From positions 57,376-121,375 of the forward strand of contig CAJTTN010000006.1 of assembly GCA_910579215.1 (NCBI GenBank): 64,000 nt of DNA, in the 5' to 3' direction. This document shows, one piece after another, positions 7,905 to 44,922 of this stretch (position 1 is its first letter; the number at the start of each line of letters is the position of its first letter). Position numbers and translations under genes: made by a program. The DNA comes from an uncultured Anaeroplasmataceae bacterium. Its GTDB lineage: Bacteria; Bacillota_I; Bacilli_A; Acholeplasmatales; Anaeroplasmataceae. The notes below the pieces were generated by a model. That model searched no databases and was not told where the DNA came from. It was given only the letters and a program-made list of their open reading frames with translations.

Positions 7905-9899
7905 ATGATTTTGGATCTAAAGGATATTAAAAAAATTGGACCAGTTACATTAGAGCGCTTAAATGCAAATCATATTTATACGCCTAAAGATCTCCTTTTA
8001 TATTTTCCTAGAAAATATAATTATTATCAGGTGGACAATTCTAATGCCTTTTGTGGAGAGGCTTTATGCTTTAAGGCAAGGGTTGCTTCTCGACCCATAT
8101 GGATAAAGACGCATAAAAATTCTAGGGCATTTGTTTTCTATATTTTTGTAAATGAACGAAAAATAAAATGTGTAATTTATTCTAGTGATTATCTTCGGTT
8201 TAAGCTTCAAATTGGATTAGACATAATTTGTTTTGGAAAATATAAGGAAAAGGAAAATGAATTTAGTCTAAGTACAGTTTTTTTTGAAGATTTTTCTAGT
8301 CGAATTGAGTTAGATTATGGAATATTAGATATAAAAAATAAGATGCTACAAAATGCAGTAAAAAATGTTTTAGATTCGGGATTTAGTTTAGAGGATGATT
8401 TACCTATACAATTTATTGAAAAATACAGGTTAGGCTCTTTAAATGAAATTGTAAAGCTAGCACATTTTCCAAGAAATGTGCAGGATTGTGAAAGAGTTAG
8501 AAGAAGAATCCGTTATGAGGATTTCTTTTGGTATACTCTTTCATTAGAGGCTTTAAAAAAGCTTAGAAATGAAGATATAAAGCAACCTAAAATAATTAAT
8601 GAAAGTCTAATTGAAGATACAATTTCAAGTTTACCTTTTGAACTTACCATTGATCAAAGAAATGTAATTCAAGATTGCTTGCGTGATTTAAAATCAAATA
8701 AAACTATGAATCGATTGATTCAAGGAGATGTAGGTTCAGGTAAAACTATAGTAGCTTTTATTACAGCACTTGCTGCTATTACTGCTGGGTATCAGGTAGC
8801 TATAATGGTTCCTACAGAAATTCTTGCTAAACAGCATTTATTAACGATTAAAAGACTTTTTCCATTCTTGGCTTCAGAATTACTCGTTTCTTCCTTGAAA
8901 CAAAAAGAAAAAGAGGATATTTTATTTCGACTATTGCATGGGAGAGTTTCCATCTTAATTGGCACACATGCATTATTAGAGAATAAAGTTATTTTTAAAA
9001 ATTTGGGGTTAGTAGTAATTGATGAACAGCATCGTTTTGGTGTAAGGCAACGTCAAACCTTATTAAAAAAACTTAAGGGAGTTGATGCTCTATATCTCAC
9101 TGCAACCCCTATTCCAAGAACTTTAGGCTTAACCTCATTTGGTGATTTAGACCTATCCCTCATTCATACTATGCCAAAGAATAGGAGACCAGTGGAAACA
9201 AAGGTAATTTCAATGGAGGATATCTCTACCTTAGCACTGACTTTAAGAAGACATTTGGCATGTGATGAGCAAATCTATGTAGTTGTTCCCTTAATTAAAG
9301 AGAGTGAAAGCTTAGATTTTATTGATATGAATAAGGCTATGGAAATATTTGAACAGCTTTTACCAGAGGCAAAATTAGGAGTTCTCCATGGCAAAATGAA
9401 AGCAAACGAAAAAGATGAAATTATGTCTTCCTTTAAATCAGGTAAAATAGAATGTCTTTTATCTACAACGGTGATAGAGGTGGGAGTTGATGTTTCTAAT
9501 GCTACAGTAATGGTCATATTAGATGCAGAGCGATATGGACTATCTCAAATTCATCAGCTTCGTGGACGTGTTGGTAGAGGGGAAATTCAATCCTATTGTT
9601 ATCTAGTAACTACAAAAGCTTATGTGCAACGCCTAGATATTTTATCTAAAATTCAAGATGGATTTACACTTGCAGAAGAGGATTTCAAGCTGCGTGGACC
9701 AGGAGATTATTTGGGTGAAGAACAGTCAGGATTTATGAGTTTAAATTTTGATTATGAATCCAATGATGCGATTATTTGGAAATGTGCCTTAGAGGATAGC
9801 AGAGCCTATTTAGAGGAATATGGAAAGGATTTCCATAAAAATCAAAGAGTTGAAGATATTTTCAATCAGATTTCTTATAAAAAAAATAAAATAAACTAG
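7905..9899 (+). CDS. recG: ATP-dependent DNA helicase RecG
   Basis: Helicase motifs GDVGSGKT, DEQHRFG and QLRGRVGRG are present. Length 664 aa. Downstream of yloV. Confidence 0.9.
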   Translation: MILDLKDIKKIGPVTLERLNANHIYTPKDLLLYFPRKYNYYQVDNSNAFCGEALCFKARVASRPIWIKTHKNSRAFVFYIFVNERKIKCVIYSSDYLRFKLQIGLDIICFGKYKEKENEFSLSTVFFEDFSSRIELDYGILDIKNKMLQNAVKNVLDSGFSLEDDLPIQFIEKYRLGSLNEIVKLAHFPRNVQDCERVRRRIRYEDFFWYTLSLEALKKLRNEDIKQPKIINESLIEDTISSLPFELTIDQRNVIQDCLRDLKSNKTMNRLIQGDVGSGKTIVAFITALAAITAGYQVAIMVPTEILAKQHLLTIKRLFPFLASELLVSSLKQKEKEDILFRLLHGRVSILIGTHALLENKVIFKNLGLVVIDEQHRFGVRQRQTLLKKLKGVDALYLTATPIPRTLGLTSFGDLDLSLIHTMPKNRRPVETKVISMEDISTLALTLRRHLACDEQIYVVVPLIKESESLDFIDMNKAMEIFEQLLPEAKLGVLHGKMKANEKDEIMSSFKSGKIECLLSTTVIEVGVDVSNATVMVILDAERYGLSQIHQLRGRVGRGEIQSYCYLVTTKAYVQRLDILSKIQDGFTLAEEDFKLRGPGDYLGEEQSGFMSLNFDYESNDAIIWKCALEDSRAYLEEYGKDFHKNQRVEDIFNQISYKKNKIN

Positions 9900-30017: not shown

Positions 30018-30722
30018 ATGGATTTTGTAAAAGAAATAGAAGCATTAGGTATGACGATAACTAAAGAAAATTTAGAAAAATTTTCTATTTATTATGAAAC
30101 TTTAATTCAAGTAAATCAGGTTATGAATTTAACAGCTATTACGGAAAAGGATGAGGTATATCGTAAGCATTTTTTAGATTCCTTAGAAATTAAAAGAGTT
30201 TTACCAACCACTCCCTATTCCTTATGCGATGTTGGAAGTGGTGCTGGCTTTCCCTCAGTACCTTTAGCTATTTTAGATTCTAATATAAAAGTTACAATTA
30301 TTGATGCCTTAAATAAAAGAATTCAATTTTTAAATACATTAACTGAAAAATTAGATTTGGCGCATGTTTGTGCTATACATGCGCGAGCAGAGGATTACGT
30401 AAAAGAGAAAAGAGAAGCCTTTGATGTTGTTACTGCTCGGGCAGTTGCACGTCTTTCTATATTAGCTGAATTATGTCTTCCATTAACTAAGGTTGGTGGA
30501 CTATTTATAGCTATGAAGGGCTCTTCTGGAGAAGAAGAAATGAAAGAAGCTAACAGAGCTATTGAGCTACTAGGAGGAAGAGTAAAGGAAATAGTTTCCT
30601 TTACGTTACCTGATGAAGAAGAGATGCGTCAACTCATTGTAATAGAAAAGATTAAAGCAACACCACTTAAATATCCTAGAAGTTATGGAAAAATTAAGGA
30701 GAAACCATTATGTACGCTTTAA
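30018..30722 (+). CDS. rsmG: 16S rRNA (guanine527-N7)-methyltransferase RsmG (GidB)
   Basis: DVGSGAGFP SAM motif. Immediately follows mnmG. Confidence 0.9.
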   Translation: MDFVKEIEALGMTITKENLEKFSIYYETLIQVNQVMNLTAITEKDEVYRKHFLDSLEIKRVLPTTPYSLCDVGSGAGFPSVPLAILDSNIKVTIIDALNKRIQFLNTLTEKLDLAHVCAIHARAEDYVKEKREAFDVVTARAVARLSILAELCLPLTKVGGLFIAMKGSSGEEEMKEANRAIELLGGRVKEIVSFTLPDEEEMRQLIVIEKIKATPLKYPRSYGKIKEKPLCTL

Positions 30723-30874
30723 ATGATATTATTAAGACAAGGAAGCCTCATGTCTGTGGGTGTAATAGCTGGAGAGTTCTACGTATTGGTGCTGATATAA
30801 AGCTAGAATGCTGTGAATGTAAAAGGGTGATTATGCTTGCCTCTTATGAGCTAGATAAAAGGATAAAAAAGTAA
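30710..30874 (+). CDS. Small zinc-ribbon-like protein, DUF951-like (54 aa), missed by the ORF track
   Basis: MYALNDIIKTRKPHVCGCNSWRVLRIGADIKLECCECKRVIMLASYELDKRIKK. The four-Cys pattern K-P-H-x-CG and GADIK resembles the small DUF951 proteins that follow rsmG in Firmicutes. AAGGAG SD. Overlaps the rsmG end. Confidence 0.5.
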   Translation: MYALNDIIKTRKPHVCGCNSWRVLRIGADIKLECCECKRVIMLASYELDKRIKK

Positions 30875-31650: not shown

Positions 31651-32028
31651 ATGCTAGAATTTTTCGAATATGATGATTCTAACGGTTATGCAAGTGTTTA
31701 TGATAGTCATATTACCCTTAATAAAACACTTCTAAAATATCTTAAGGATGCATATCGTGTTAGAGTAGCAGTAGATAAGGTTAAGGATAATATTCATATT
31801 TATGTGATCAATAAGGATTATGCATTAAGTGGTGAATTAAAGGAATCCTCTTTATTACCTGTTTCTATTTCTAAATCCTATGCAAGAATCTGTTCTAGAC
31901 CATTAATAGAGTATATTTCTAATGTTTTTGGCCTAACGATTGCTAAAAAAGAATTTAAAAGATTTAAGGCGTGTTATGATGATGTAAAACAGGTTATACT
32001 AATAGATATGAAAGGAGAGGTATCCTAA
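31651..32028 (+). CDS. Hypothetical protein (125 aa)
   Basis: ORF with GGAGG SD. No recognisable motif. Confidence 0.4.
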   Translation: MLEFFEYDDSNGYASVYDSHITLNKTLLKYLKDAYRVRVAVDKVKDNIHIYVINKDYALSGELKESSLLPVSISKSYARICSRPLIEYISNVFGLTIAKKEFKRFKACYDDVKQVILIDMKGEVS

Positions 32029-32471
32029 TGGAAGCTTATATGGTTTGGATTTGGCTGAGTGCCTTTATTATCACTCTTGTTATAGAATCCATAACACAGG
32101 ATTTAGTAGCAGTGTGGTTTTCTCTAGGTTCAATTATTGCTTTAATATTATCAGCCTTTCCAGCAATTGATTGGTATATTGAGGTCGTTGTTTTTGCTGT
32201 GGTTTCTTTCTTGTCTTTAGGCTTGACTAGACCATTTGCTAAAAAATTATTATTTAATGCTACTAGATATACTAATGTTGATGAATTTGTAGGGAAAAGG
32301 GTAAAGGTTATTTCTGACATTTCAAAGTATGAGAATGGAGAAGTAAAAATTCATGATATTATTTATAATGCAAGTCTAATGGAGGAAGAGACGGAAACCA
32401 TTCATAAGGATGAAATTGTAGAAATTGTGACCTTGAAGGGGAACAAAGTAGTAGTAAGAAAAATTCAGTAA
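32028..32471 (+). CDS. NfeD-family membrane protein (short form, OB-fold C-terminus)
   Basis: N-terminal TM helices and a C-terminal beta-rich domain (GKRVKVISDI...GEVKIHD...VEIVTLKGNKVVV). Immediately upstream of an SPFH gene, the classic NfeD-SPFH pairing. Confidence 0.7.
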   Translation: MEAYMVWIWLSAFIITLVIESITQDLVAVWFSLGSIIALILSAFPAIDWYIEVVVFAVVSFLSLGLTRPFAKKLLFNATRYTNVDEFVGKRVKVISDISKYENGEVKIHDIIYNASLMEEETETIHKDEIVEIVTLKGNKVVVRKIQ

Positions 32472-32492
32472 AGGAAAGGAATAGTTTAATAT

Positions 32493-33434
32493 ATGAATAC
32501 AGGAATTATTGTTGCTATTGTATGTAGTGTAATTTTAGTTGTTATTGTTATTTTATTGATTACGAGAATAAAAATTGTTCGTCAAACACAGAAGTTGATT
32601 GTTGAGCGTTTAGGGGCCTATCACGCTACGTGGTCTGTAGGATTTCATTTCTTGGTACCATTTATTGATCGTGTAGCTCAGGTAGTATCTATGAAGGAGC
32701 AGGTTAACGATTTTGATCCACAGCCTGTGATTACAAAAGATAATGTTACTATGCAAATTGATACCGTGGTTTTCTTTCAGGTTACAGATCCAAAGCTATA
32801 TTCCTATGGTGTAGAAAATCCAATTGCCGCTTTAGAAAACTTATCTTCTACAACTTTACGTAATATTATTGGTGAATTAGATTTGGATGAAACTTTAACT
32901 TCACGAGATATTATAAATACAAAGATGAGATCTATTCTAGATGAAGCAACAGATCCTTGGGGTATTAAGGTTAATCGTGTAGAGGTTAAAAATATTTTAC
33001 CACCAAAGGATATTCGAGATGCTATGGAGCGTCAAATGCGTGCTGAGCGTGAACGTCGTGAGAAAATTTTGCTTGCAGAAGGTGAAAAAAGAAGTCAAAT
33101 ACTTCAAGCAGAGGGAGAAAAAGAATCTCAAATCTTAAGAGCAGAGGCAGAAAAGGAAGCCACAATTAAAAAGGCAGAAGCAGAGGCAGCTGCAATTCTT
33201 AAGGTAAGAACAGCAGAGGCTGAAGGTGTTAGACTTACTCGTCAGGCACAAGCAGAAGGATATAGAATGCTAGTAGATGCAGGCTTAACAAAAGAGGTTT
33301 TAGCAATTAAATCCTTTGAAGCTCTAGAGAAGGTTGCTGATGGGCAGTCTACTAAACTAATCATTCCATCTGATATGCAAAATTTAGCTGCTACTATTGC
33401 AAGTTTAGCAGAGGTTGTTAAGGATAAGAAATAA
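32493..33434 (+). CDS. SPFH/band-7 (stomatin/FloA-like flotillin) protein
   Basis: N-terminal TM, SPFH core (VPFIDRVAQVVSMKEQV...ITKDNVTMQIDTVVFFQV), Ala/Glu-rich coiled coil. Partner of the upstream NfeD. Confidence 0.85.
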   Translation: MNTGIIVAIVCSVILVVIVILLITRIKIVRQTQKLIVERLGAYHATWSVGFHFLVPFIDRVAQVVSMKEQVNDFDPQPVITKDNVTMQIDTVVFFQVTDPKLYSYGVENPIAALENLSSTTLRNIIGELDLDETLTSRDIINTKMRSILDEATDPWGIKVNRVEVKNILPPKDIRDAMERQMRAERERREKILLAEGEKRSQILQAEGEKESQILRAEAEKEATIKKAEAEAAAILKVRTAEAEGVRLTRQAQAEGYRMLVDAGLTKEVLAIKSFEALEKVADGQSTKLIIPSDMQNLAATIASLAEVVKDKK

Positions 33435-33445
33435 GAAATCAAATG

Positions 33446-33475
33446 ATGCCAAGTGTAAAACCTGGCATTTTTTTG
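33446..33475 (+). terminator. Rho-independent terminator after SPFH gene
   Basis: atgcca...tggcat hairpin followed by T7. Confidence 0.55.
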
Positions 33476-33569
33476 TCTTTAAAAACTTGTATTATTTATT
33501 TTTGACAAAAAATGGTAAAATTTACCAATTTATGATATAATGAATAACATAAATCATAAGAGGTCAAAA

Positions 33570-34892
33570 ATGAAAAAGAAATATTTAGAACTAGATGTCT
33601 ATGAAAGCCTAATGAATAGATTAAAATTTATATTTGAAGAATTTGAAAATATTTTTGTTTCTTTTTCTGGTGGAAAGGATAGCGGACTTTTATTAAATTT
33701 AGTTTTAGATTATAAAAGAAAGTATTATCCAGAACGTGTAATAGGTGTTTTTCATCAGGATTTTGAAGCACAATATGACTATACAACTAAATATGTAGAA
33801 AGTACCTTTGAGCGAATAAAAAATGAGGCAGAGCTCTATTGGGTTTGTCTTCCAATGGCTACTAGAACGGCGCTAAGTAGCTATGAAATGTATTGGTATC
33901 CTTGGGATGATAGGCTTCAAGACATTTGGGTAAGACCTCTACCTCAGCATGAATATGTTATTTCATTAGAAAACAATCCTATTACGACTTATAAATATAA
34001 AATGCATCAAGAGGATTTGGCAAAGCAATTTGGAAGATGGTACCGCGCAGTGCATGGAGAAACGTCTACAATATGCTTATTAGGAATTCGTGCTGATGAA
34101 TCCCTACATCGTTACAGTGGATTTTTAAATAAAAAAAAGGGATATAAGCATAAATGCTATATCACACAGCAATTTAAAAATGTATGGTGTGCCTCTCCTT
34201 TATATGATTGGAGTGTTCAGGATGTTTGGCATGCAATAGCGATGCTAGGATATGATTATAATCCTTTGTATGATATTTTTTATCAGGTTGGACTTAAGCC
34301 CTCTATGATGAGAGTTGCCTCTCCATTTAATGATTATGCAAAGGACAGCCTGAATTATTATAGAGTTATTGAACCTGAGACCTGGACAAAGCTTTTAGGT
34401 CGTGTACAGGGTGTTAATTTTGCAGGTATTTATGGTAGAACTAAGGCCTTAGGGTATAGGAGTGTTACCTTACCTGAAGGACATACTTGGGAATCCTATA
34501 CAAAGTTTTTACTTGCCACCTTACCAACAAGAATTAGAAATGGATATTTGAAAAAATTTAAAACCTCTATCGATTTTTGGCATAATGTTGGTGGAGGCTT
34601 AGAAGAATCCACCATTCAAGAATTAGAGGAAAAAGGATATAATATTCAAAGAAATGGTGTTTCAAACTATACTATATTTAAAAATACTAGAATAATTTTT
34701 ATAGGTAAAATACCTGACCATACCGATGACATCAAATCCTCTCGTGATATACCTTCGTGGAAAAGAATGTGCTATTGTATTTTGAAAAATGATCATTTAT
34801 GTAGAAGTATGGGATTTGGTTTGACTAGAGATCAACAAAGAAATTTAGATGTTATAAAGCAAAAATATCTTGCTTTGGAGGAAATAGAATGA
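33570..34892 (+). CDS. IbrA-like protein: PAPS-reductase/PP-loop ATP pyrophosphatase domain plus DUF3440-like C-terminal domain
   Basis: SFSGGKDS PP-loop (SGGxDS). ~440 aa. AAGAGG SD 6 nt before ATG 33570. Stop overlaps the start of the ParB-like partner (ATGA). Confidence 0.7.
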   Translation: MKKKYLELDVYESLMNRLKFIFEEFENIFVSFSGGKDSGLLLNLVLDYKRKYYPERVIGVFHQDFEAQYDYTTKYVESTFERIKNEAELYWVCLPMATRTALSSYEMYWYPWDDRLQDIWVRPLPQHEYVISLENNPITTYKYKMHQEDLAKQFGRWYRAVHGETSTICLLGIRADESLHRYSGFLNKKKGYKHKCYITQQFKNVWCASPLYDWSVQDVWHAIAMLGYDYNPLYDIFYQVGLKPSMMRVASPFNDYAKDSLNYYRVIEPETWTKLLGRVQGVNFAGIYGRTKALGYRSVTLPEGHTWESYTKFLLATLPTRIRNGYLKKFKTSIDFWHNVGGGLEESTIQELEEKGYNIQRNGVSNYTIFKNTRIIFIGKIPDHTDDIKSSRDIPSWKRMCYCILKNDHLCRSMGFGLTRDQQRNLDVIKQKYLALEEIE

Positions 34893-35455
34893 GTTCAAAA
34901 AGTCCAGTTTATAAAATTAAGGCAGTTCCAATAGAGAAAATTAATCCTAATTCCTATAATCCTAATTCTGTGGCACCACCAGAAATGAGATTACTTTATG
35001 ATAGTATCAAAGAGGATGGGTATACGATGCCTATCGTTTGTTACTATAATCCAGAGGATGATACATATATCATAGTCGATGGATTTCATAGATATAGAGT
35101 TATGCTTGATTATAAGGATATTTATGAGCGAGAGGGAGGCTGTCTTCCTGTAACTGTAATAGATAAGCCCTTAGATAAACGTATGGCTAGTACAATTCGA
35201 CATAATCGTGCAAGAGGCTCTCATAATGTTGATTTGATGAGTAATATAGTTAGTGAATTGCATGAATTGGGAAGATCTGATGCTTGGATATGTAAGCATT
35301 TAGGTATGCAAAAAGATGAGGTTTTAAGACTAAAACAAATTACAGGATTAGCATCTTTATTTAAGGATATAGACTTTAGTAAGGGCTGGATTCCAGAAGA
35401 TGATTTTGAAACGGAATTTAAGCAATTGGAAGCAGCGTATGTAAATAGAAAATAG
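34889..35455 (+). CDS. IbrB-like ParB/sulfiredoxin-fold nuclease-domain protein
   Basis: ParB N-terminal-like motifs (IEKINPNSYNPN..., IIVDGFHRY, IRHNRARGSH). 188 aa. Translationally coupled to the upstream PP-loop protein. Confidence 0.7.
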   Translation: MSSKSPVYKIKAVPIEKINPNSYNPNSVAPPEMRLLYDSIKEDGYTMPIVCYYNPEDDTYIIVDGFHRYRVMLDYKDIYEREGGCLPVTVIDKPLDKRMASTIRHNRARGSHNVDLMSNIVSELHELGRSDAWICKHLGMQKDEVLRLKQITGLASLFKDIDFSKGWIPEDDFETEFKQLEAAYVNRK

Positions 35456-35580
35456 TTTATTTCTTAAATTAAATTTTAATAAGGTTATCTATAGTGAACC
35501 CAATTATTTTTATCTTAAGGAATTAAGAGAAGATAATTGTGATTTTATAATGTAGGGAACAATAGAAAATAAAGCTAATA

Positions 35581-35607
35581 AAAACAAAAAAAGCCAATCA
35601 TCTGGCT
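35581..35607 (-). terminator. Terminator for the tRNA-Asp/tRNA-Arg transcript
   Basis: agccaatcatctggct hairpin. On the minus strand it is followed by a T-run (complement of the 35581-35591 A-run). Confidence 0.55.
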
Positions 35608-35618
35608 ATTATTAACTA

Positions 35619-35695
35619 TGGCGCACCCTAGAGGATTCGAACCCCTAACCTTTTGATCCGTAGTCAAACGATCTATCCAATTGATCTAAGGGTGC
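35619..35695 (-). tRNA. tRNA-Arg (anticodon ACG)
   Basis: The reverse complement folds as a canonical cloverleaf: acceptor GCACCCT/AGGGTGC, D-stem GATC/GATC, anticodon stem TTTGA/TCAAA with loop CTACGGA (anticodon ACG), T-loop TTCGAAT, 3' GCCA. 77 nt. Confidence 0.85.
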
Positions 35696-35709
35696 ATATG
35701 ATTTATTTT

Positions 35710-35785
35710 TGGCGGTTCGGACGGGACTTGAACCCGCGATCTCCAGTGTGACAGACTAGCATGTTAACCACTACACCACCGAACC
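35710..35785 (-). tRNA. tRNA-Asp (anticodon GTC)
   Basis: Reverse complement GGTTCGG...CCGAACCGCCA. Anticodon stem CTAGT/ACTGG with loop CTGTCAC (anticodon GTC). T-arm GCGGG-TTCAAGT-CCCGT. 76 nt. Confidence 0.85.
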
Positions 35786-37756: not shown

Positions 37757-37866
37757 AATTATCGATTTTTATTGGGAAATTATTTATAATTTCCTTTTTT
37801 TATTGTATAATAGATTTAGCATTATAATTATATATAATTTTAAAAAAGGAAAAGAGGTTGATTTTT

Positions 37867-39381
37867 ATGGAATTCCCAATACTTATTACAATTATAGTAG
37901 TGGCAGTAGTAATTTTTTTAGTGATTCTTTTCGCTTTATCTTATGTTAAGGCAGGTCCTGATACGGCAATTATGGTAACAGGAGCAGGAAAAAAGAAAAT
38001 TTTAATTGGTAAGGCGGGCTTTAGAATACCCTTTTTTCAAAGAACCGATTCCCTTTCTTTAAAAGCCTTTCAAGTAGATATTAAAACAGAGGAAGCCATT
38101 CCAACTAAGGAATTTATAAACATTAATGTAGATGGTGTAGCTAATTTAAAAATATCTTCTGATACGGAGATGCTAGAAAAGGCATTTGAATCTATTTTAA
38201 ATATGGCTGAATCTGAGCTTCAAAATCAGCTCCAGCAGGTATTGCAGGGAAACATGCGTGAAATTGTTGGTACAGTTGAAATTAAAGAGCTAGTAAGAGA
38301 TCGTCAAGGAGTTGCAAATAAGGTTAAGGAAAATGTTGTACCTGATATGGCTAAGCTTGGAATAGAGGTTGTAAACTTCAATATACAGTCCTTTTCAGAT
38401 GATAATAAGGTTATTGAAAATCTAGGTATAGATAATATTAGTCAAATTTCTAAGGATGCCTCAATAGCTAGAGCGAATGCTGAGCGAGATGTAGCTATTG
38501 CCTCAAGTGCAGCAAGTGAAGCAGCTAATAAAGCTAAAGTAGAATCTCAAATGAAGATTGTGCAGCAAAATACAGATTATGAGCTTCAGGCTGCAGCATT
38601 GAAGCAAAAATCAGATACGGCAAAGGCTGTTGCAGATGCTGCCTATGATATTGAAAAGCAGAAGCGTTTAGAACAGATTAATGTTGCCGAGGTGAACGCA
38701 AATATTGCTAAACGCGAAAGAGAAGTTGAGCTTGGAAATCGTGAAGTTGAATTAAAGGAAAAGAAGCTTCAGGCTGAGGTAAATAAGGTAGCAGATTCAA
38801 AAAAATATGCTGACCAAATGGCTGCAGAAGCGGATTTATTCACGCGTCAAAAGGCTGCAGAAGCAAAGAAATATGAATTAGAACAAGAAGCAGAAATGCA
38901 AAAGATAAAAGCAGAAGCAGATAAAATTGCAAGACAAAAATCAGCAGAGGCTTTTAAGATTCAAGCAGATTTAGAGGCTGCAGCGCAAATTGCGAGAGCA
39001 AACGCAGCTAAAGAAGCAGCTTTAGCTGAAGCCCAGGGAATAGAGGCTAAGGGTAAAGCAGAAGCGGATGCAATACGTGCTAAAGCAGAGGCTATGAAAC
39101 AATATGGAGAAGCTGCAACCTTACAGTTAATTTTAGATTCAGGTGTACTTCCTGAAATGGTTAAGGCTTATGCAGAACCAGTGGCTAGTGCAATGAGTAA
39201 GATAGATAGTATTACTATGTATGGAGAAGGAAATACAGCTAAGCTTACGGAGGAGATATCTAAAAATGGAACCCAAATTTTTGCAGGACTTGAAAAGGCA
39301 ACAGGACTAGATATAAAATCCTTACTTGCAGGTTTTTTGGGTGGTAAGCTGATAGAAAAAAGCAAATCTGACAAAGAATAA
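37867..39381 (+). CDS. Flotillin (FloT/YuaG-like SPFH protein with long Ala/Glu/Lys coiled coil)
   Basis: N-terminal TM helix, SPFH domain, ~250-aa AEA/KAE-rich coiled coil. ~500 aa, as B. subtilis FloT. ATG 37867 after AAGAGG. Confidence 0.8.
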   Translation: MEFPILITIIVVAVVIFLVILFALSYVKAGPDTAIMVTGAGKKKILIGKAGFRIPFFQRTDSLSLKAFQVDIKTEEAIPTKEFININVDGVANLKISSDTEMLEKAFESILNMAESELQNQLQQVLQGNMREIVGTVEIKELVRDRQGVANKVKENVVPDMAKLGIEVVNFNIQSFSDDNKVIENLGIDNISQISKDASIARANAERDVAIASSAASEAANKAKVESQMKIVQQNTDYELQAAALKQKSDTAKAVADAAYDIEKQKRLEQINVAEVNANIAKREREVELGNREVELKEKKLQAEVNKVADSKKYADQMAAEADLFTRQKAAEAKKYELEQEAEMQKIKAEADKIARQKSAEAFKIQADLEAAAQIARANAAKEAALAEAQGIEAKGKAEADAIRAKAEAMKQYGEAATLQLILDSGVLPEMVKAYAEPVASAMSKIDSITMYGEGNTAKLTEEISKNGTQIFAGLEKATGLDIKSLLAGFLGGKLIEKSKSDKE

Positions 39382-43336: not shown

Positions 43337-43368
43337 AAAACAGCCTGAATTTTTTCAGGCATTTTTTT
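43337..43368. terminator. Bidirectional rho-independent terminator shared by the convergent DUF2752 gene and pepT
   Basis: gcctgaa-ttttt-tcaggc hairpin flanked by A4 and T8. The pepT stop codon lies within the stem. Confidence 0.6.
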
Positions 43369-44572
43369 CTATTTTAGCAATTTCTATTAAAATTTTTGTA
43401 ACTAGTTCCATTTCTTCTAAACAAGCAAACTCATAAGGACCATGACAATTATATCCGCCTGTTCCTAGATTGGGAGTTGGAAGTCCCATAAAGGTTAATC
43501 TTGCACCATCTGTTCCTCCACGAATAGGAGAAGTAGTAGGAGCAAGATTTAATCTTTCCATTGCCCTTTTTGCTTGTTCTACACAAACGGGATGCTTAGT
43601 TATAATATCAGACATATTTTTATAAGAATCTTTTATTGTTACAGATATTGTAGTTTTTCCATATTTTTGATTTAAATAGACTTCTGCCTCTTTTAAAAGT
43701 TTTTTCTTGGTTTCTAATAAGGATTTATTATGATCTCTTATAATATAGTGTAATGTAGCTTCCCCAACAGCTCCCTCTATATTTGTTAGATGGATGAAAC
43801 CTTCATAGCCTTCTGTATATTCAGGCTTTTGTTCCTTAGGGAGCATGGAGGCAAATTCCATTGCTATTTCGCTTGCATTTTTCATTTGATTTTTTGCGGA
43901 ACCAGGATGAATATCTAAGCCTTTTATTTTGACAGTTGCCGAAGCTGCATTAAAGTTTTCATAATTTATATCATGATATGCTCCTCCATCTACTGTATAA
44001 GCATAGGAGCAAGGAAATTTGGATAGATCAAAATGCTCAATTCCACTCCCTATTTCCTCATCAGGTGTAAAGGCTACATGAATTTCAGCATGGGGAGCTT
44101 CTGTAGTGGTATAATACCAAAGCATAGTCATTATACACGCAATTCCAGCCTTATCATCAGCTCCAAGAACAGTGGTTCCATCTGTAGTGATTAAAGTTTT
44201 CCCCTTTAATGTCTTTAAAACAGGAAATTGCCTTGGGTTTAATTCAATAGAGTTTAAGGAAATTGTTTTTCCATCATAATCGTTAATTACCTGTGGATTA
44301 ACATTTGTGCCACTGAAGTCAGGGATTGTATCCATATGAGCAATAAAGCCTATGGCGTCACTAGTGTCCTTCGTATTTGCAGGTAGTGTAGCATAAACAA
44401 AGCAATCCTTAGATAGGTAGACATCCTTTAGTCCTAGCTCTTTTAGTTCTTCACATAAAATTTCTGCCAATTGAAATTGCTTTTCTGTGGAGGGAGTTTT
44501 TGCTATACTATCATCTGACATAGTATCTATTTTTACATATTTTAAAAAATTATGGAGTAATTTAGTTTTCAT
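43355..44572 (-). CDS. pepT: Peptidase T (tripeptide aminopeptidase, M20B)
   Basis: MKTKLLHNFLKYVKIDTMSDDS... N-terminus, HMDT, DDKAG and GGTDG motifs. Confidence 0.9.
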   Translation of the reverse strand: MKTKLLHNFLKYVKIDTMSDDSIAKTPSTEKQFQLAEILCEELKELGLKDVYLSKDCFVYATLPANTKDTSDAIGFIAHMDTIPDFSGTNVNPQVINDYDGKTISLNSIELNPRQFPVLKTLKGKTLITTDGTTVLGADDKAGIACIMTMLWYYTTTEAPHAEIHVAFTPDEEIGSGIEHFDLSKFPCSYAYTVDGGAYHDINYENFNAASATVKIKGLDIHPGSAKNQMKNASEIAMEFASMLPKEQKPEYTEGYEGFIHLTNIEGAVGEATLHYIIRDHNKSLLETKKKLLKEAEVYLNQKYGKTTISVTIKDSYKNMSDIITKHPVCVEQAKRAMERLNLAPTTSPIRGGTDGARLTFMGLPTPNLGTGGYNCHGPYEFACLEEMELVTKILIEIAKIEKNA

Positions 44573-44724
44573 AAACGTTCCGCCTTTCTATAAGATATTA
44601 TAACGCAATCCTTTAAAATTTTCACTAAATCATGGTAAATTTAACCAAAAAATAAGAAAATTCTTGCCTGTTTACAATTTCTGCGTTATAATCTATATGT
44701 AGAAAAGTTTGAAAGGAGTCTCTG

Positions 44725-44922
44725 ATGAAGGGTAAAGTTAAATGGTTTAATGCTGAAAAAGGCTACGGCTTCATTGTATCTGAAGAAGGCAAAGAAGTTT
44801 TTGTTCACTTTAGTTCAATCTGTGCTGATGGTTATAAAACATTAAATGAAGGCGAAGAAGTTACCTTTGACGTAGTTGAAGGTGAAAAGGGTCAGTTAGC
44901 AAAGGAAGTTTATAAAGCTTAG
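44725..44922 (+). CDS. Cold-shock protein (CspA family)
   Basis: [19 protein letters not shown]1 and VFVHF RNP2. Confidence 0.95.

Follow-up and report, generated by a model that had tools for sequence, protein, structure and literature searches.

What is done by a pair of overlapping genes, one for a PP-loop protein and one for a ParB-like protein, that lies between a flotillin-like operon and two tRNA genes? The question is raised by a stretch of 64,000 nucleotides (here called the window) from an uncultured Anaeroplasmataceae bacterium (GenBank assembly GCA_910579215.1, contig CAJTTN010000006.1, positions 57,376 to 121,375). Judged by homology, the two genes are members of the IbrA/IbrB (YbdN/YbdM) family, a widespread 'y-gene' module of unsolved biochemistry that is found in E. 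coli K-12, in the core genome of Listeria monocytogenes, on plasmids, in phages, and in many gut Firmicutes. In annotations, genes of this family routinely appear under the wrong names of CysH, 'auxiliary metabolic gene' (AMG), or ParB partition protein. The pair travels with its own promoter and a palindromic operator and, by its motifs and model scores, is neither an assimilatory 3'-phosphoadenosine 5'-phosphosulfate (PAPS) reductase nor a component of a Dnd, Ssp, or BREX system.

The IbrA/IbrB pair and its relatives

Two open reading frames (ORFs) on the plus strand, 33540..34892 and 34889..35455, share a 4-nucleotide ATGA overlap. The overlap fits the translational coupling proposed in the first-pass annotation of this DNA, and both ORFs are real; the start of ibrA given there most likely has to be moved. 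The in-frame ATG at 33540, which opens the longest ORF, is unused by homologues. Since the closest IbrA proteins in the database are 440 amino acids long and their alignment begins only at the second in-frame ATG, the start most likely lies at 33570, at an ATG preceded by AAGAGG (33558-33563). In the case of ibrB, the sequence GGAGGA is present at 34877-34882 and the start codon overlaps the stop codon of ibrA.

Membership of the family is indicated by matches to Pfam, by homology over the full length of both E. coli proteins, and by the strict adjacency of the two genes. IbrA matches PF01507 (PAPS_reduct) with 51.6 bits (1.5e-13; cut-off 22.5) and, over profile positions 1-181 of 182, PF11922 (DUF3440) with 282 bits (2.4e-84; cut-off 25), in agreement with the earlier reading of a PP-loop ATP pyrophosphatase (SGGKDS) with a DUF3440 tail. 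BLASTP aligned residues 6-432 of IbrA with E. coli YbdN at 30 % identity (E 3e-62), while IbrB is 48 % identical to YbdM (E 2e-51). A set of 80 related genome loci that encode IbrA at 70-93 % identity was drawn from Anaeroplasmataceae, other Bacilli, Erysipelotrichaceae, Lachnospiraceae, Blautia, and Oscillospiraceae; ibrB directly follows ibrA in 79 of them. The resemblance to E. coli IbrAB that had been pointed out before therefore holds. E. coli K-12 YbdN/YbdM (b0602/b0601) and IbrA/IbrB share the two-gene order, the overlap, the succession of PAPS_reduct plus DUF3440 and then a ParB-like protein, and the catalytic motifs. YbdN differs in lacking a segment of ~35 residues in DUF3440, and YbdM carries an N-terminal extension of ~40 residues.

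An exhaustive search of 1.84 billion representatives returned 319 clusters at E<=1e-30; with the limit relaxed to E<=1e-10, the number was 1,133. Homologues were found in 721 plasmid records and in 224 phage records, the hosts of which include Flavobacterium, Mycobacterium, Streptococcus thermophilus, Streptococcus equinus, Lactobacillus, and Listeria. The phage homologues are annotated as IbrA/IbrB or as 'PAPS reductase' and 'ParB-like'. Phage pairs such as those of the S. thermophilus Moineauvirus CHPC877, L. helveticus CR28, Listeria, Mycobacterium Gaia (gp103), and Flavobacterium FCL-2 have the same domains in the same order, at identities of 60-72 % for IbrB and 40-45 % for IbrA. In L. 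monocytogenes, the pair lmo1309/lmo1310 belongs to the core genome (PMC7020466). No mechanistic study of IbrAB/YbdNM was found in the literature searched, which offered only annotations, regulation by CitR, a guess at a toxin-antitoxin (TA) function, and the AMG label.

The SGGKDS PP-loop of IbrA (residues 33-38) is invariant in both alignments of homologues (A1 and A3). Among 24 homologues of 29-46 % identity, D64/E66, C93-x-P95, G172-x-R174-x-x-E177-S178, and D213 are likewise invariant or nearly so, W214 is also invariant in alignment A3, and SGGKDS, D-x-E, and GxRxxES are unchanged across relatives at 29-93 % identity. A conserved cysteine cluster of the [4Fe-4S] type was not present across these 24 diverse proteins; C93 is the only near-invariant cysteine, and the C-terminal CxC...C is restricted to the close subfamily. 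The ECG[LI]H motif, with the catalytic cysteine of CysH, was not found in any of the six frames of the window. All specific NCBIfam models of the superfamily (CysH, adenosine 5'-phosphosulfate (APS) reductase, CysD, DndC, TilS, and LarE) gave IbrA 15-32 bits against cut-offs of 94-1086. With TIGR00434, NF002537, and TIGR02055, scores of 19.1, 18.7, and 17.2 bits were obtained (cut-offs 165, 154, and 235), only a stretch of ~45 residues matching, and with the DndC model TIGR03183 the score was 27.3 bits (cut-off 290).

Because the PP-loop motifs are intact, ECG[LI]H and a conserved cysteine cluster are missing, and the CysH scores lie below threshold, IbrA is best read from its sequence as an enzyme of the PAPS-reductase fold in which the ATP-pyrophosphatase loop is complete, comparable to the oxyanion adenylators CysD, FAD synthase, and DndC rather than to CysH. 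A placement of the first protein in CysH proper, which the first-pass annotation had named as a refuting outcome, is not borne out by the scores or by the missing motif. Its closest folds are FAD synthase, APS reductase, CysD, and TilS, with ~170 of the 440 residues aligning. From CysH, CysD, and FAD synthase it differs by an insertion at residues ~96-145, by the whole of DUF3440, and by the lack of both the ECGLH cysteine and a cys-operon context. A phmmer search of the PDB gave nothing but a marginal match to FAD synthase and no solved structure of a close homologue, and longer members of the family contained no informative domain fusion (no ParB, SNF2, or methylase). The literature on viral 'cysH AMGs' includes a DUF3440 clade that is counted as CysH (bioRxiv 10.1101/2021.01.05.425418). 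By its sequence this viral clade is IbrA-like rather than CysH, and neither the viral AMG label nor the TA label used in Listeria appears to be backed by the tests of motifs and thresholds.

The N-domain of IbrB does have a fold of the ParB/sulfiredoxin (Srx) superfamily. The claim that the partner is a ParB/sulfiredoxin-fold protein thus stands at the level of the fold, although the score for Pfam ParB_N stays slightly below the threshold. The nucleotide-pocket motif is DGFHRYR followed by TIRHNRARG, which is of the 'DGxHR' type of Srx, SerK, and DndB, and the chain ends after helix-turn-helix (HTH)-like helices. In structural comparison, IbrB matched KorB best, and it also resembles SbnI, SerK, and sulfiredoxin. 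IbrB matches its own PHROG family, phrog_2159 (3.8e-82), and, as second best, phrog_498 (4e-13), which is annotated as a DNA methyltransferase; PADLOC returned no match for it. Unlike the KorB/ParB/PadC clamps and SbnI/SerK/sulfiredoxin, IbrB combines DGFHRYR in place of the GERRxR of ParB with an obligatory PP-loop partner. A parA gene does not adjoin the pair in any of the loci, and IbrB has no C-terminal dimerization domain. By these three features, namely the exchanged motif, the lack of a ParA partner, and the missing domain, a canonical ParB partition CTPase is ruled out.

An IbrB-like protein of 323 amino acids (P0391) contains two ParB_N stretches and a weak match to GmrSD_N, which suggests a duplicated or fused IbrB variant.

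The operator and the mobile unit

The DNA of the window is homologous to that of two other Anaeroplasmataceae loci in which the pair has other neighbors (L002 and L005), from 33478-33500 to ~35410-35415, that is, over the promoter, ibrA, and ibrB only. The mobile unit is ~2 kb in size and consists of the promoter, a palindromic operator, ibrA, and ibrB; its boundaries are at ~33480 and ~35415, not at a tRNA gene. Eight aligned upstream regions, other genomic contexts included, share the invariant block AAAwTGGTAAwwTTTrCCAATT-TrTGmTATAAT, both flanks of which are unalignable. That a conserved promoter and operator travel with ibrAB is a new observation made here.

In the window, the palindrome TGGTAAAATTTACCA lies between a TTGACA box and the extended -10 sequence TGATATAAT (Table 1). 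Pairing of TTGACA (33502) with TATAAT (33536) as canonical -35 and -10 boxes was rejected on account of the 28-nucleotide spacing, and the extended -10 (TGnTATAAT) is the better reading. In Lachnospiraceae, TGGWAA/TTWCCA half-sites occur as direct or inverted pairs ~10 bp apart, often 3' of a conserved TTGAAT...TGCTAAATT promoter. A strict motif of paired half-sites was present in 36 of 78 ibrA upstream regions; the corresponding figures were 6 of 950 for the upstream regions of other genes and 0.2 % for shuffles. When related upstream sequences were collapsed into 54 lineages, the strict pair was retained in 20 and a relaxed pair in 33, against backgrounds of 0.7 and 9.3 %, respectively. Of all 6-mers upstream of ibrA, TGGAAA and TGGTAA show the strongest enrichment (p ~1e-13). 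The position of the motif relative to the promoter varies, which fits a DNA operator better than an RNA element. IbrB would be its parsimonious binder, since no other DNA-binding candidate accompanies the operator in every case. We infer from this that IbrB binds the TGGWAA sites, and the palindrome TGGTAAAATTTACCA is a candidate IbrB site that may serve autoregulation or be parS-like.

A second, near-perfect palindrome (1 mismatch), TGGTAAATTTAACCA, is located at 44633-44647, intergenic between a gene for an M20 peptidase (43355-44572, minus strand) and a cold-shock gene (44725-44922, plus strand). With ~0.4 matches expected in the window by chance, and two or more in 5 % of shuffles, this site could be a second target of IbrB or a chance match. 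One palindrome in phage CHPC877 (L081, 4208) is no more than chance would be expected to give. The E. coli genes are controlled differently: ybdNM, which has no TGGWAA operator, is tightly repressed by the neighboring LysR regulator CitR/YbdO (PMC9068703), whereas the Firmicutes cassette has an operator of its own.

Neighborhood, accessory status, and spread

The setting of the pair between a flotillin operon with its own terminator and the 3' ends of genes for tRNA-Arg and tRNA-Asp was found to be as first described: the NfeD and SPFH genes are there, the hairpin with T-run that ends their operon and forms the left boundary of the cassette region was also found by a terminator scan, and ARAGORN detected the two tRNA genes, which are the only ones in the window. 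As both are on the minus strand, their 3' ends face ibrB. A gene for an M42 peptidase sits downstream of the tRNAs. At the tRNA-Arg/Asp and M42 genes, which are conserved chromosomal neighbors outside the ibrAB module, a variable region has its right boundary.

When metagenome contigs were anchored on the M42 peptidase gene, the source contig (L083, 99-100 % identical) and several relatives of the locus were recovered. The pair lies beside tRNA-Arg/Asp in four of these (window/L083, L001, L003, and L004), two of which carry extra cargo. Three others (L084, L086, and L106) have the tRNA-Arg, tRNA-Asp, and M42 genes with other cargo in place of ibrAB (Table 1), and L106 also keeps NfeD-SPFH. Since the same tRNA/M42 locus is occupied by ibrAB in four relatives and by other genes in three, ibrAB is accessory in this Anaeroplasmataceae lineage, and the interval from SPFH to tRNA-Arg (33435-35618 in the window) is a hot spot of variable cargo. 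The variable presence at the tRNA locus that the first-pass annotation had proposed as a check is thereby seen. No recombinase was visible in this interval in L004, L001, L106, L086, or L084.

The notion of a classic tRNA island finds little support at best. Among the 138 immediate neighbors of the pair in the 80 loci, a Pfam scan found assorted housekeeping families and no integrase, transposase, or defense gene, and all-versus-all clustering of the 1,091 ORFs of these loci revealed no conserved third gene, no other gene being present in more than 7 loci. Around the pair in the window, neither an att-type direct repeat nor a duplicated tRNA fragment was found, only AT-rich repeats at chance level. 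The G+C content shows no anomaly (0.29-0.38 inside the cassette versus 0.26-0.39 outside) and neither does the skew. Adjacency to tRNA genes is itself uncommon: they lie directly 3' of ibrB in 8 of 81 loci, which represent five independent contexts with different tRNAs in both orientations.

Three further Anaeroplasmataceae loci (L002, L005, and L039) hold ibrAB in wholly different contexts. Within the lineage of the window, the divergence of the pair tracks that of its neighbors (window versus L004: IbrA 83 %, IbrB 79 %, SPFH 91 %, NfeD 82 %, and M42 77 % identity), which fits vertical descent after a single acquisition. Between classes, for instance Anaeroplasmataceae and Lachnospiraceae, IbrA is 70-75 % and IbrB 71-80 % identical, while GidA is just 63-65 % identical to that of relatives in which M42 is ~72 % identical. 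Plasmid copies from C. perfringens, E. faecalis, and Subdoligranulum are 69-73 % identical; to E. coli and phage relatives, the identity of IbrA is 30-45 %. The high identity across classes, compared with that of GidA, and the plasmid copies argue for a fairly recent horizontal spread of ibrAB among gut Firmicutes.

Table 1 Positions of the features discussed, in the window and in related loci
Feature	Locus	Positions	Strand	Remarks
ibrA/ybdN-like gene	window	33570-34892	+	440 aa; N-terminal PAPS-reductase-fold PP-loop ATP pyrophosphatase/adenylyltransferase domain (predicted), then DUF3440; SGGKDS at residues 33-38
ibrB/ybdM-like gene	window	34889-35455	+	188 aa; ParB/sulfiredoxin-fold N-domain (DGFHR, TIRHNRARG), then C-terminal helical HTH-like region
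Cassette promoter/operator	window	33502-33541	+	TTGACA box 33502-33507; perfect 7-1-7 palindrome TGGTAAAATTTACCA 33513-33527; extended -10 TGATATAAT 33533-33541
NfeD gene	window	32028-32471		Upstream of the pair
SPFH/Band-7 (flotillin-like) gene	window	32493-33434		Upstream of the pair
Hairpin and T-run	window	33446-33475	+	ATGCCAAGTGTAAAACCTGGCAT, then TTTTTTTG; end of NfeD-SPFH operon
Terminator-like hairpin	window	35592-35607	-	3' of tRNA-Arg, inside the 163-nt ibrB-tRNA spacer; outside the cassette
tRNA-Arg(acg)	window	35619-35695	-	ARAGORN
tRNA-Asp(gtc)	window	35710-35785	-	ARAGORN
SNF2-ibrA-ibrB operon	L164	2754-5831		Streptococcal-type chromosomal copy
SNF2-ibrA-ibrB operon	L081	5773-8762		
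SNF2-ibrA-ibrB operon	L082	5833-8789		
Cargo instead of ibrAB	L084	238-1939		GGDEF membrane protein (read from sequence)
Cargo instead of ibrAB	L086	~3580-8728		Two LuxE/LuxC-like genes (read by eye)
Cargo instead of ibrAB	L106	5846-8688	-	Three ORFs, read by eye as uridine kinase, aminotransferase, and an uncharacterized protein
Extra cargo	L004	4709-8001		Radical-SAM/SPASM gene and two unannotated genes
Extra cargo	L001	2086-3471		NERD nuclease gene between ibrB and tRNA

Three observations were made on other genes near the locus. NfeD and SPFH follow, within 31651-33434, a small conserved gene (125 amino acids, no Pfam match) that has the same place in L004 and L106 by synteny. At 37858-39381, 4 kb downstream, a second, longer ORF appears flotillin-like by eye. 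An ORF of 54 amino acids at 30710-30874 overlaps the end of rsmG, and its product, with two cysteine pairs (CGC...CCEC), might be a small zinc-ribbon protein.

What the pair may do

A third gene accompanies the pair in some relatives. Phages of S. thermophilus and L. helveticus have, translationally coupled on the 5' side of ibrA-ibrB, a gene for a compact SNF2-family ATPase (~400 amino acids); the operon is flanked by the lysis genes and by cro. The order SNF2-IbrA-IbrB, with 4-nucleotide overlaps, recurs in a chromosomal subfamily that is 56 % identical and was seen on thousands of contigs (P0306), and SNF2 is likewise adjacent to ibrAB in a Listeria record. An upstream SNF2 ATPase is present in the versions of the Streptococcus and Lactobacillus phages and in the streptococcal-type copy L164, but not in the subfamily of the window. 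The SNF2 double-stranded DNA translocase of these relatives, together with the ParB-fold partner and the operator, makes DNA the probable place of action; the second-best PHROG match of IbrB, to a family annotated as DNA methyltransferase, and the SNF2 operons speak for DNA as well.

The reading that we prefer, as a tentative one that falls somewhat short of being probable, is that IbrA and IbrB form an autoregulated, DNA-directed, ATP-dependent modifying or regulatory complex. IbrB, with its nucleotide-binding ParB/sulfiredoxin fold and HTH-like tail, would bind TGGWAA half-sites that occur in pairs, among them the palindrome of its own promoter, and would in this way autoregulate the operon. 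It would recruit or activate IbrA on the DNA. IbrA, with its SGGKDS loop in a fold of the CysD/FAD-synthase/DndC type, would spend ATP to adenylate an oxygen nucleophile, with release of pyrophosphate, the acceptor being most likely on nucleic acid (DNA). Either the DNA would in this way be covalently modified or a nucleoprotein state would arise on it, and the expression or the protection of the target DNA would change as a result. A DNA-directed mechanism would account for the label 'co-activator of prophage gene expression' that database notes give to the pair, as well as for its carriage by plasmids and, with an SNF2-like translocase, by virulent phages. The label reportedly goes back to genetics in E. 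coli ECOR-9, in which the expression of prophage (eib) genes is said to be activated only when both ibrA and ibrB are present.

A more far-reaching version, which we consider speculative and rather unlikely, is that IbrAB is an unrecognized sequence-directed modification system. IbrB at TGGWAA-type sites and adenylation by IbrA would then install a new covalent mark on bases or on the backbone; this mark would be epigenetic in bacteria (through E. coli ybdNM, the core pair of Listeria, and the pairs of gut Firmicutes), and phages and plasmids (with SNF2) would use it to mark or protect their genomes.

Several points weigh against a DNA-directed complex. An SNF2 gene accompanies the pair neither in the window nor in its 80 closest relatives. 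Binding of IbrB to TGGWAA was deduced solely from co-inheritance, and the motif was not found upstream of E. coli ybdN, of the streptococcal-type three-gene operon, or of the C. perfringens plasmid copy, so that it is specific to the two-gene Firmicutes subfamily. The structure model of IbrB is of moderate confidence (predicted local distance difference test score 71), and its DGFHR motif resembles small-molecule kinases (SerK and SbnI) and sulfiredoxin as much as DNA clamps. For the DUF3440 half of IbrA and for the insertion of IbrA at residues ~96-145, no structural or sequence relative was detected, which leaves the substrate specificity unread.

The pair could also be purely transcriptional, with IbrB as a KorB- or SbnI-like repressor or activator and IbrA as an enzymatic or sensory co-regulator, for example one that makes or consumes a ligand controlling IbrB, without any modification of nucleic acid. 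The conserved operator in the cassette's own promoter fits such a role, as do the structural matches of IbrB to KorB and to SbnI, a ParB-fold enzyme that is said to regulate its own operon too. The co-activator annotation and the second palindrome, upstream of the cold-shock gene, can be read in the same sense. A 440-residue enzyme with fully conserved catalytic motifs would, however, be a costly co-regulator, and there is no conserved neighbor to be regulated in the 80 loci. Carriage by virulent phages and plasmids, sometimes with SNF2, also fits an activity on DNA better than the regulation of host genes. We regard this as an explanation to be taken seriously, although an unlikely one.

In a third explanation, IbrAB would act in small-molecule sulfur or nucleotide metabolism, as a cysH/cysD-like AMG, with sulfate, phosphate, or a metabolite as the substrate of adenylation by IbrA and with IbrB as a phosphotransferase of the Srx/SerK kind. 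This is what the viral AMG literature implies when it counts the DUF3440 clade as CysH, and it agrees with the closest folds of IbrA (FAD synthase, APS/PAPS reductases, and CysD) and with the likeness of IbrB to SerK, SbnI, and sulfiredoxin. In a published table of differential expression, moreover, ybdN (5.5) and ybdM (2.5) are accompanied by cysD, N, C, J, I, A, W, and U, which are up ~2-3-fold (PMC9068703); this is a correlation only, which might hint at chemistry related to sulfur or ATP sulfurylase or might be unrelated. Against a metabolic role stand the scores with CysH, CysD, and APS-reductase models (17-19 bits versus cut-offs of 154-235), the lack of the catalytic ECGLH cysteine and of an Fe-S cysteine cluster, and the absence of linkage to cys or other metabolic genes in the 80 loci. 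The HTH-like tail of IbrB, the operator, and SNF2 in relatives point to DNA instead, and a metabolic function is considered improbable.

A role in defense is slightly more doubtful still: a module of the Dnd/Ssp/BREX-4 type that marks self DNA, for example by phosphorothioation, and that in phages would be an anti-defense module, is held to be quite improbable. DndC/DndB, SspD, and BrxP also comprise a PAPS-reductase-superfamily PP-loop protein (SGGKDS) together with a ParB-superfamily protein (DndB) or in a DNA-modification context, and in DndB and DpdB, DNA-modifying enzymes have partners from the ParB superfamily (PMC12839542). The pair is, besides, accessory, horizontally mobile, and present on phages and plasmids, and a NERD nuclease gene adjoins it in L001. 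The echo of Dnd, Ssp, and defense systems proposed at first nevertheless turned out to be a distant resemblance. In PADLOC, IbrA gave only weak partial matches to DndC and BrxP (BrxP 22.6 bits over ~60 residues), none at the family level, and no match to Ssp. The Cys/Fe-S elements of DndC and BrxP are not present in IbrA. In the 80 loci, no DndA/D/E, SspABC, PglZ, BrxC, or BrxL gene and no restriction partner neighbors the pair; the 138 flanking genes include no effector, cysteine desulfurase, or defense-island gene. The suggested partner, a cysteine desulfurase or DndA-like protein, did not materialize in the 64-kb window either, where no signature of IscS/NifS/SufS, of CysH, or of a second PP-loop protein was found. 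The high identity across classes (70-88 %) and the core status in L. monocytogenes (PMC7020466) are unlike fast-evolving arms-race genes, and a modification-only module without a nuclease gives no defense by itself. IbrA as a DndC, SspD, or BrxP was rejected on its sub-threshold scores, the lack of a cysteine cluster, and the lack of system neighbors.

It is very improbable that IbrA modifies tRNA or RNA in the manner of the PP-loop enzymes TilS, TtcA, and TtuA, a role for which the adjacent tRNA genes would be functionally meaningful. These tRNAs vary in identity and orientation, and ~90 % of the loci have none. IbrA has no Fe-S or catalytic cysteine pair as is typical of thiolases, its obligatory partner has a ParB fold and is putatively DNA-binding, and relatives have an SNF2 double-stranded DNA translocase. 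Recombination hot spots at tRNA flanks, with the variable cargo of L001, L004, L084, L086, and L106, explain the adjacency better. An addiction pair of the TA type, with a ParB-like antitoxin and a DUF3440 toxin, is hardly credible: the two genes do form an overlapping, putatively autoregulated operon on plasmids and phages, and TASmania, through guilt by association, lists those of L. monocytogenes as a putative TA pair (PMC7020466), but this assignment was made by neighborhood alone, and the gene sizes, enzymatic motifs, and very high conservation are atypical.

In conclusion, an autoregulated complex that acts on DNA remains the tentatively preferred function of IbrAB. The locus does not reveal a new kind of system. 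What is gained for the family is a minimal cassette of ~2 kb, a conserved operator that is the putative site of IbrB, the exclusion of CysH, Dnd, and BREX, and an SNF2 partner that recurs in phages. If the reading as a DNA-modification system were true, it would mean a new epigenetic chemistry that is common to bacteria, plasmids, and phages.

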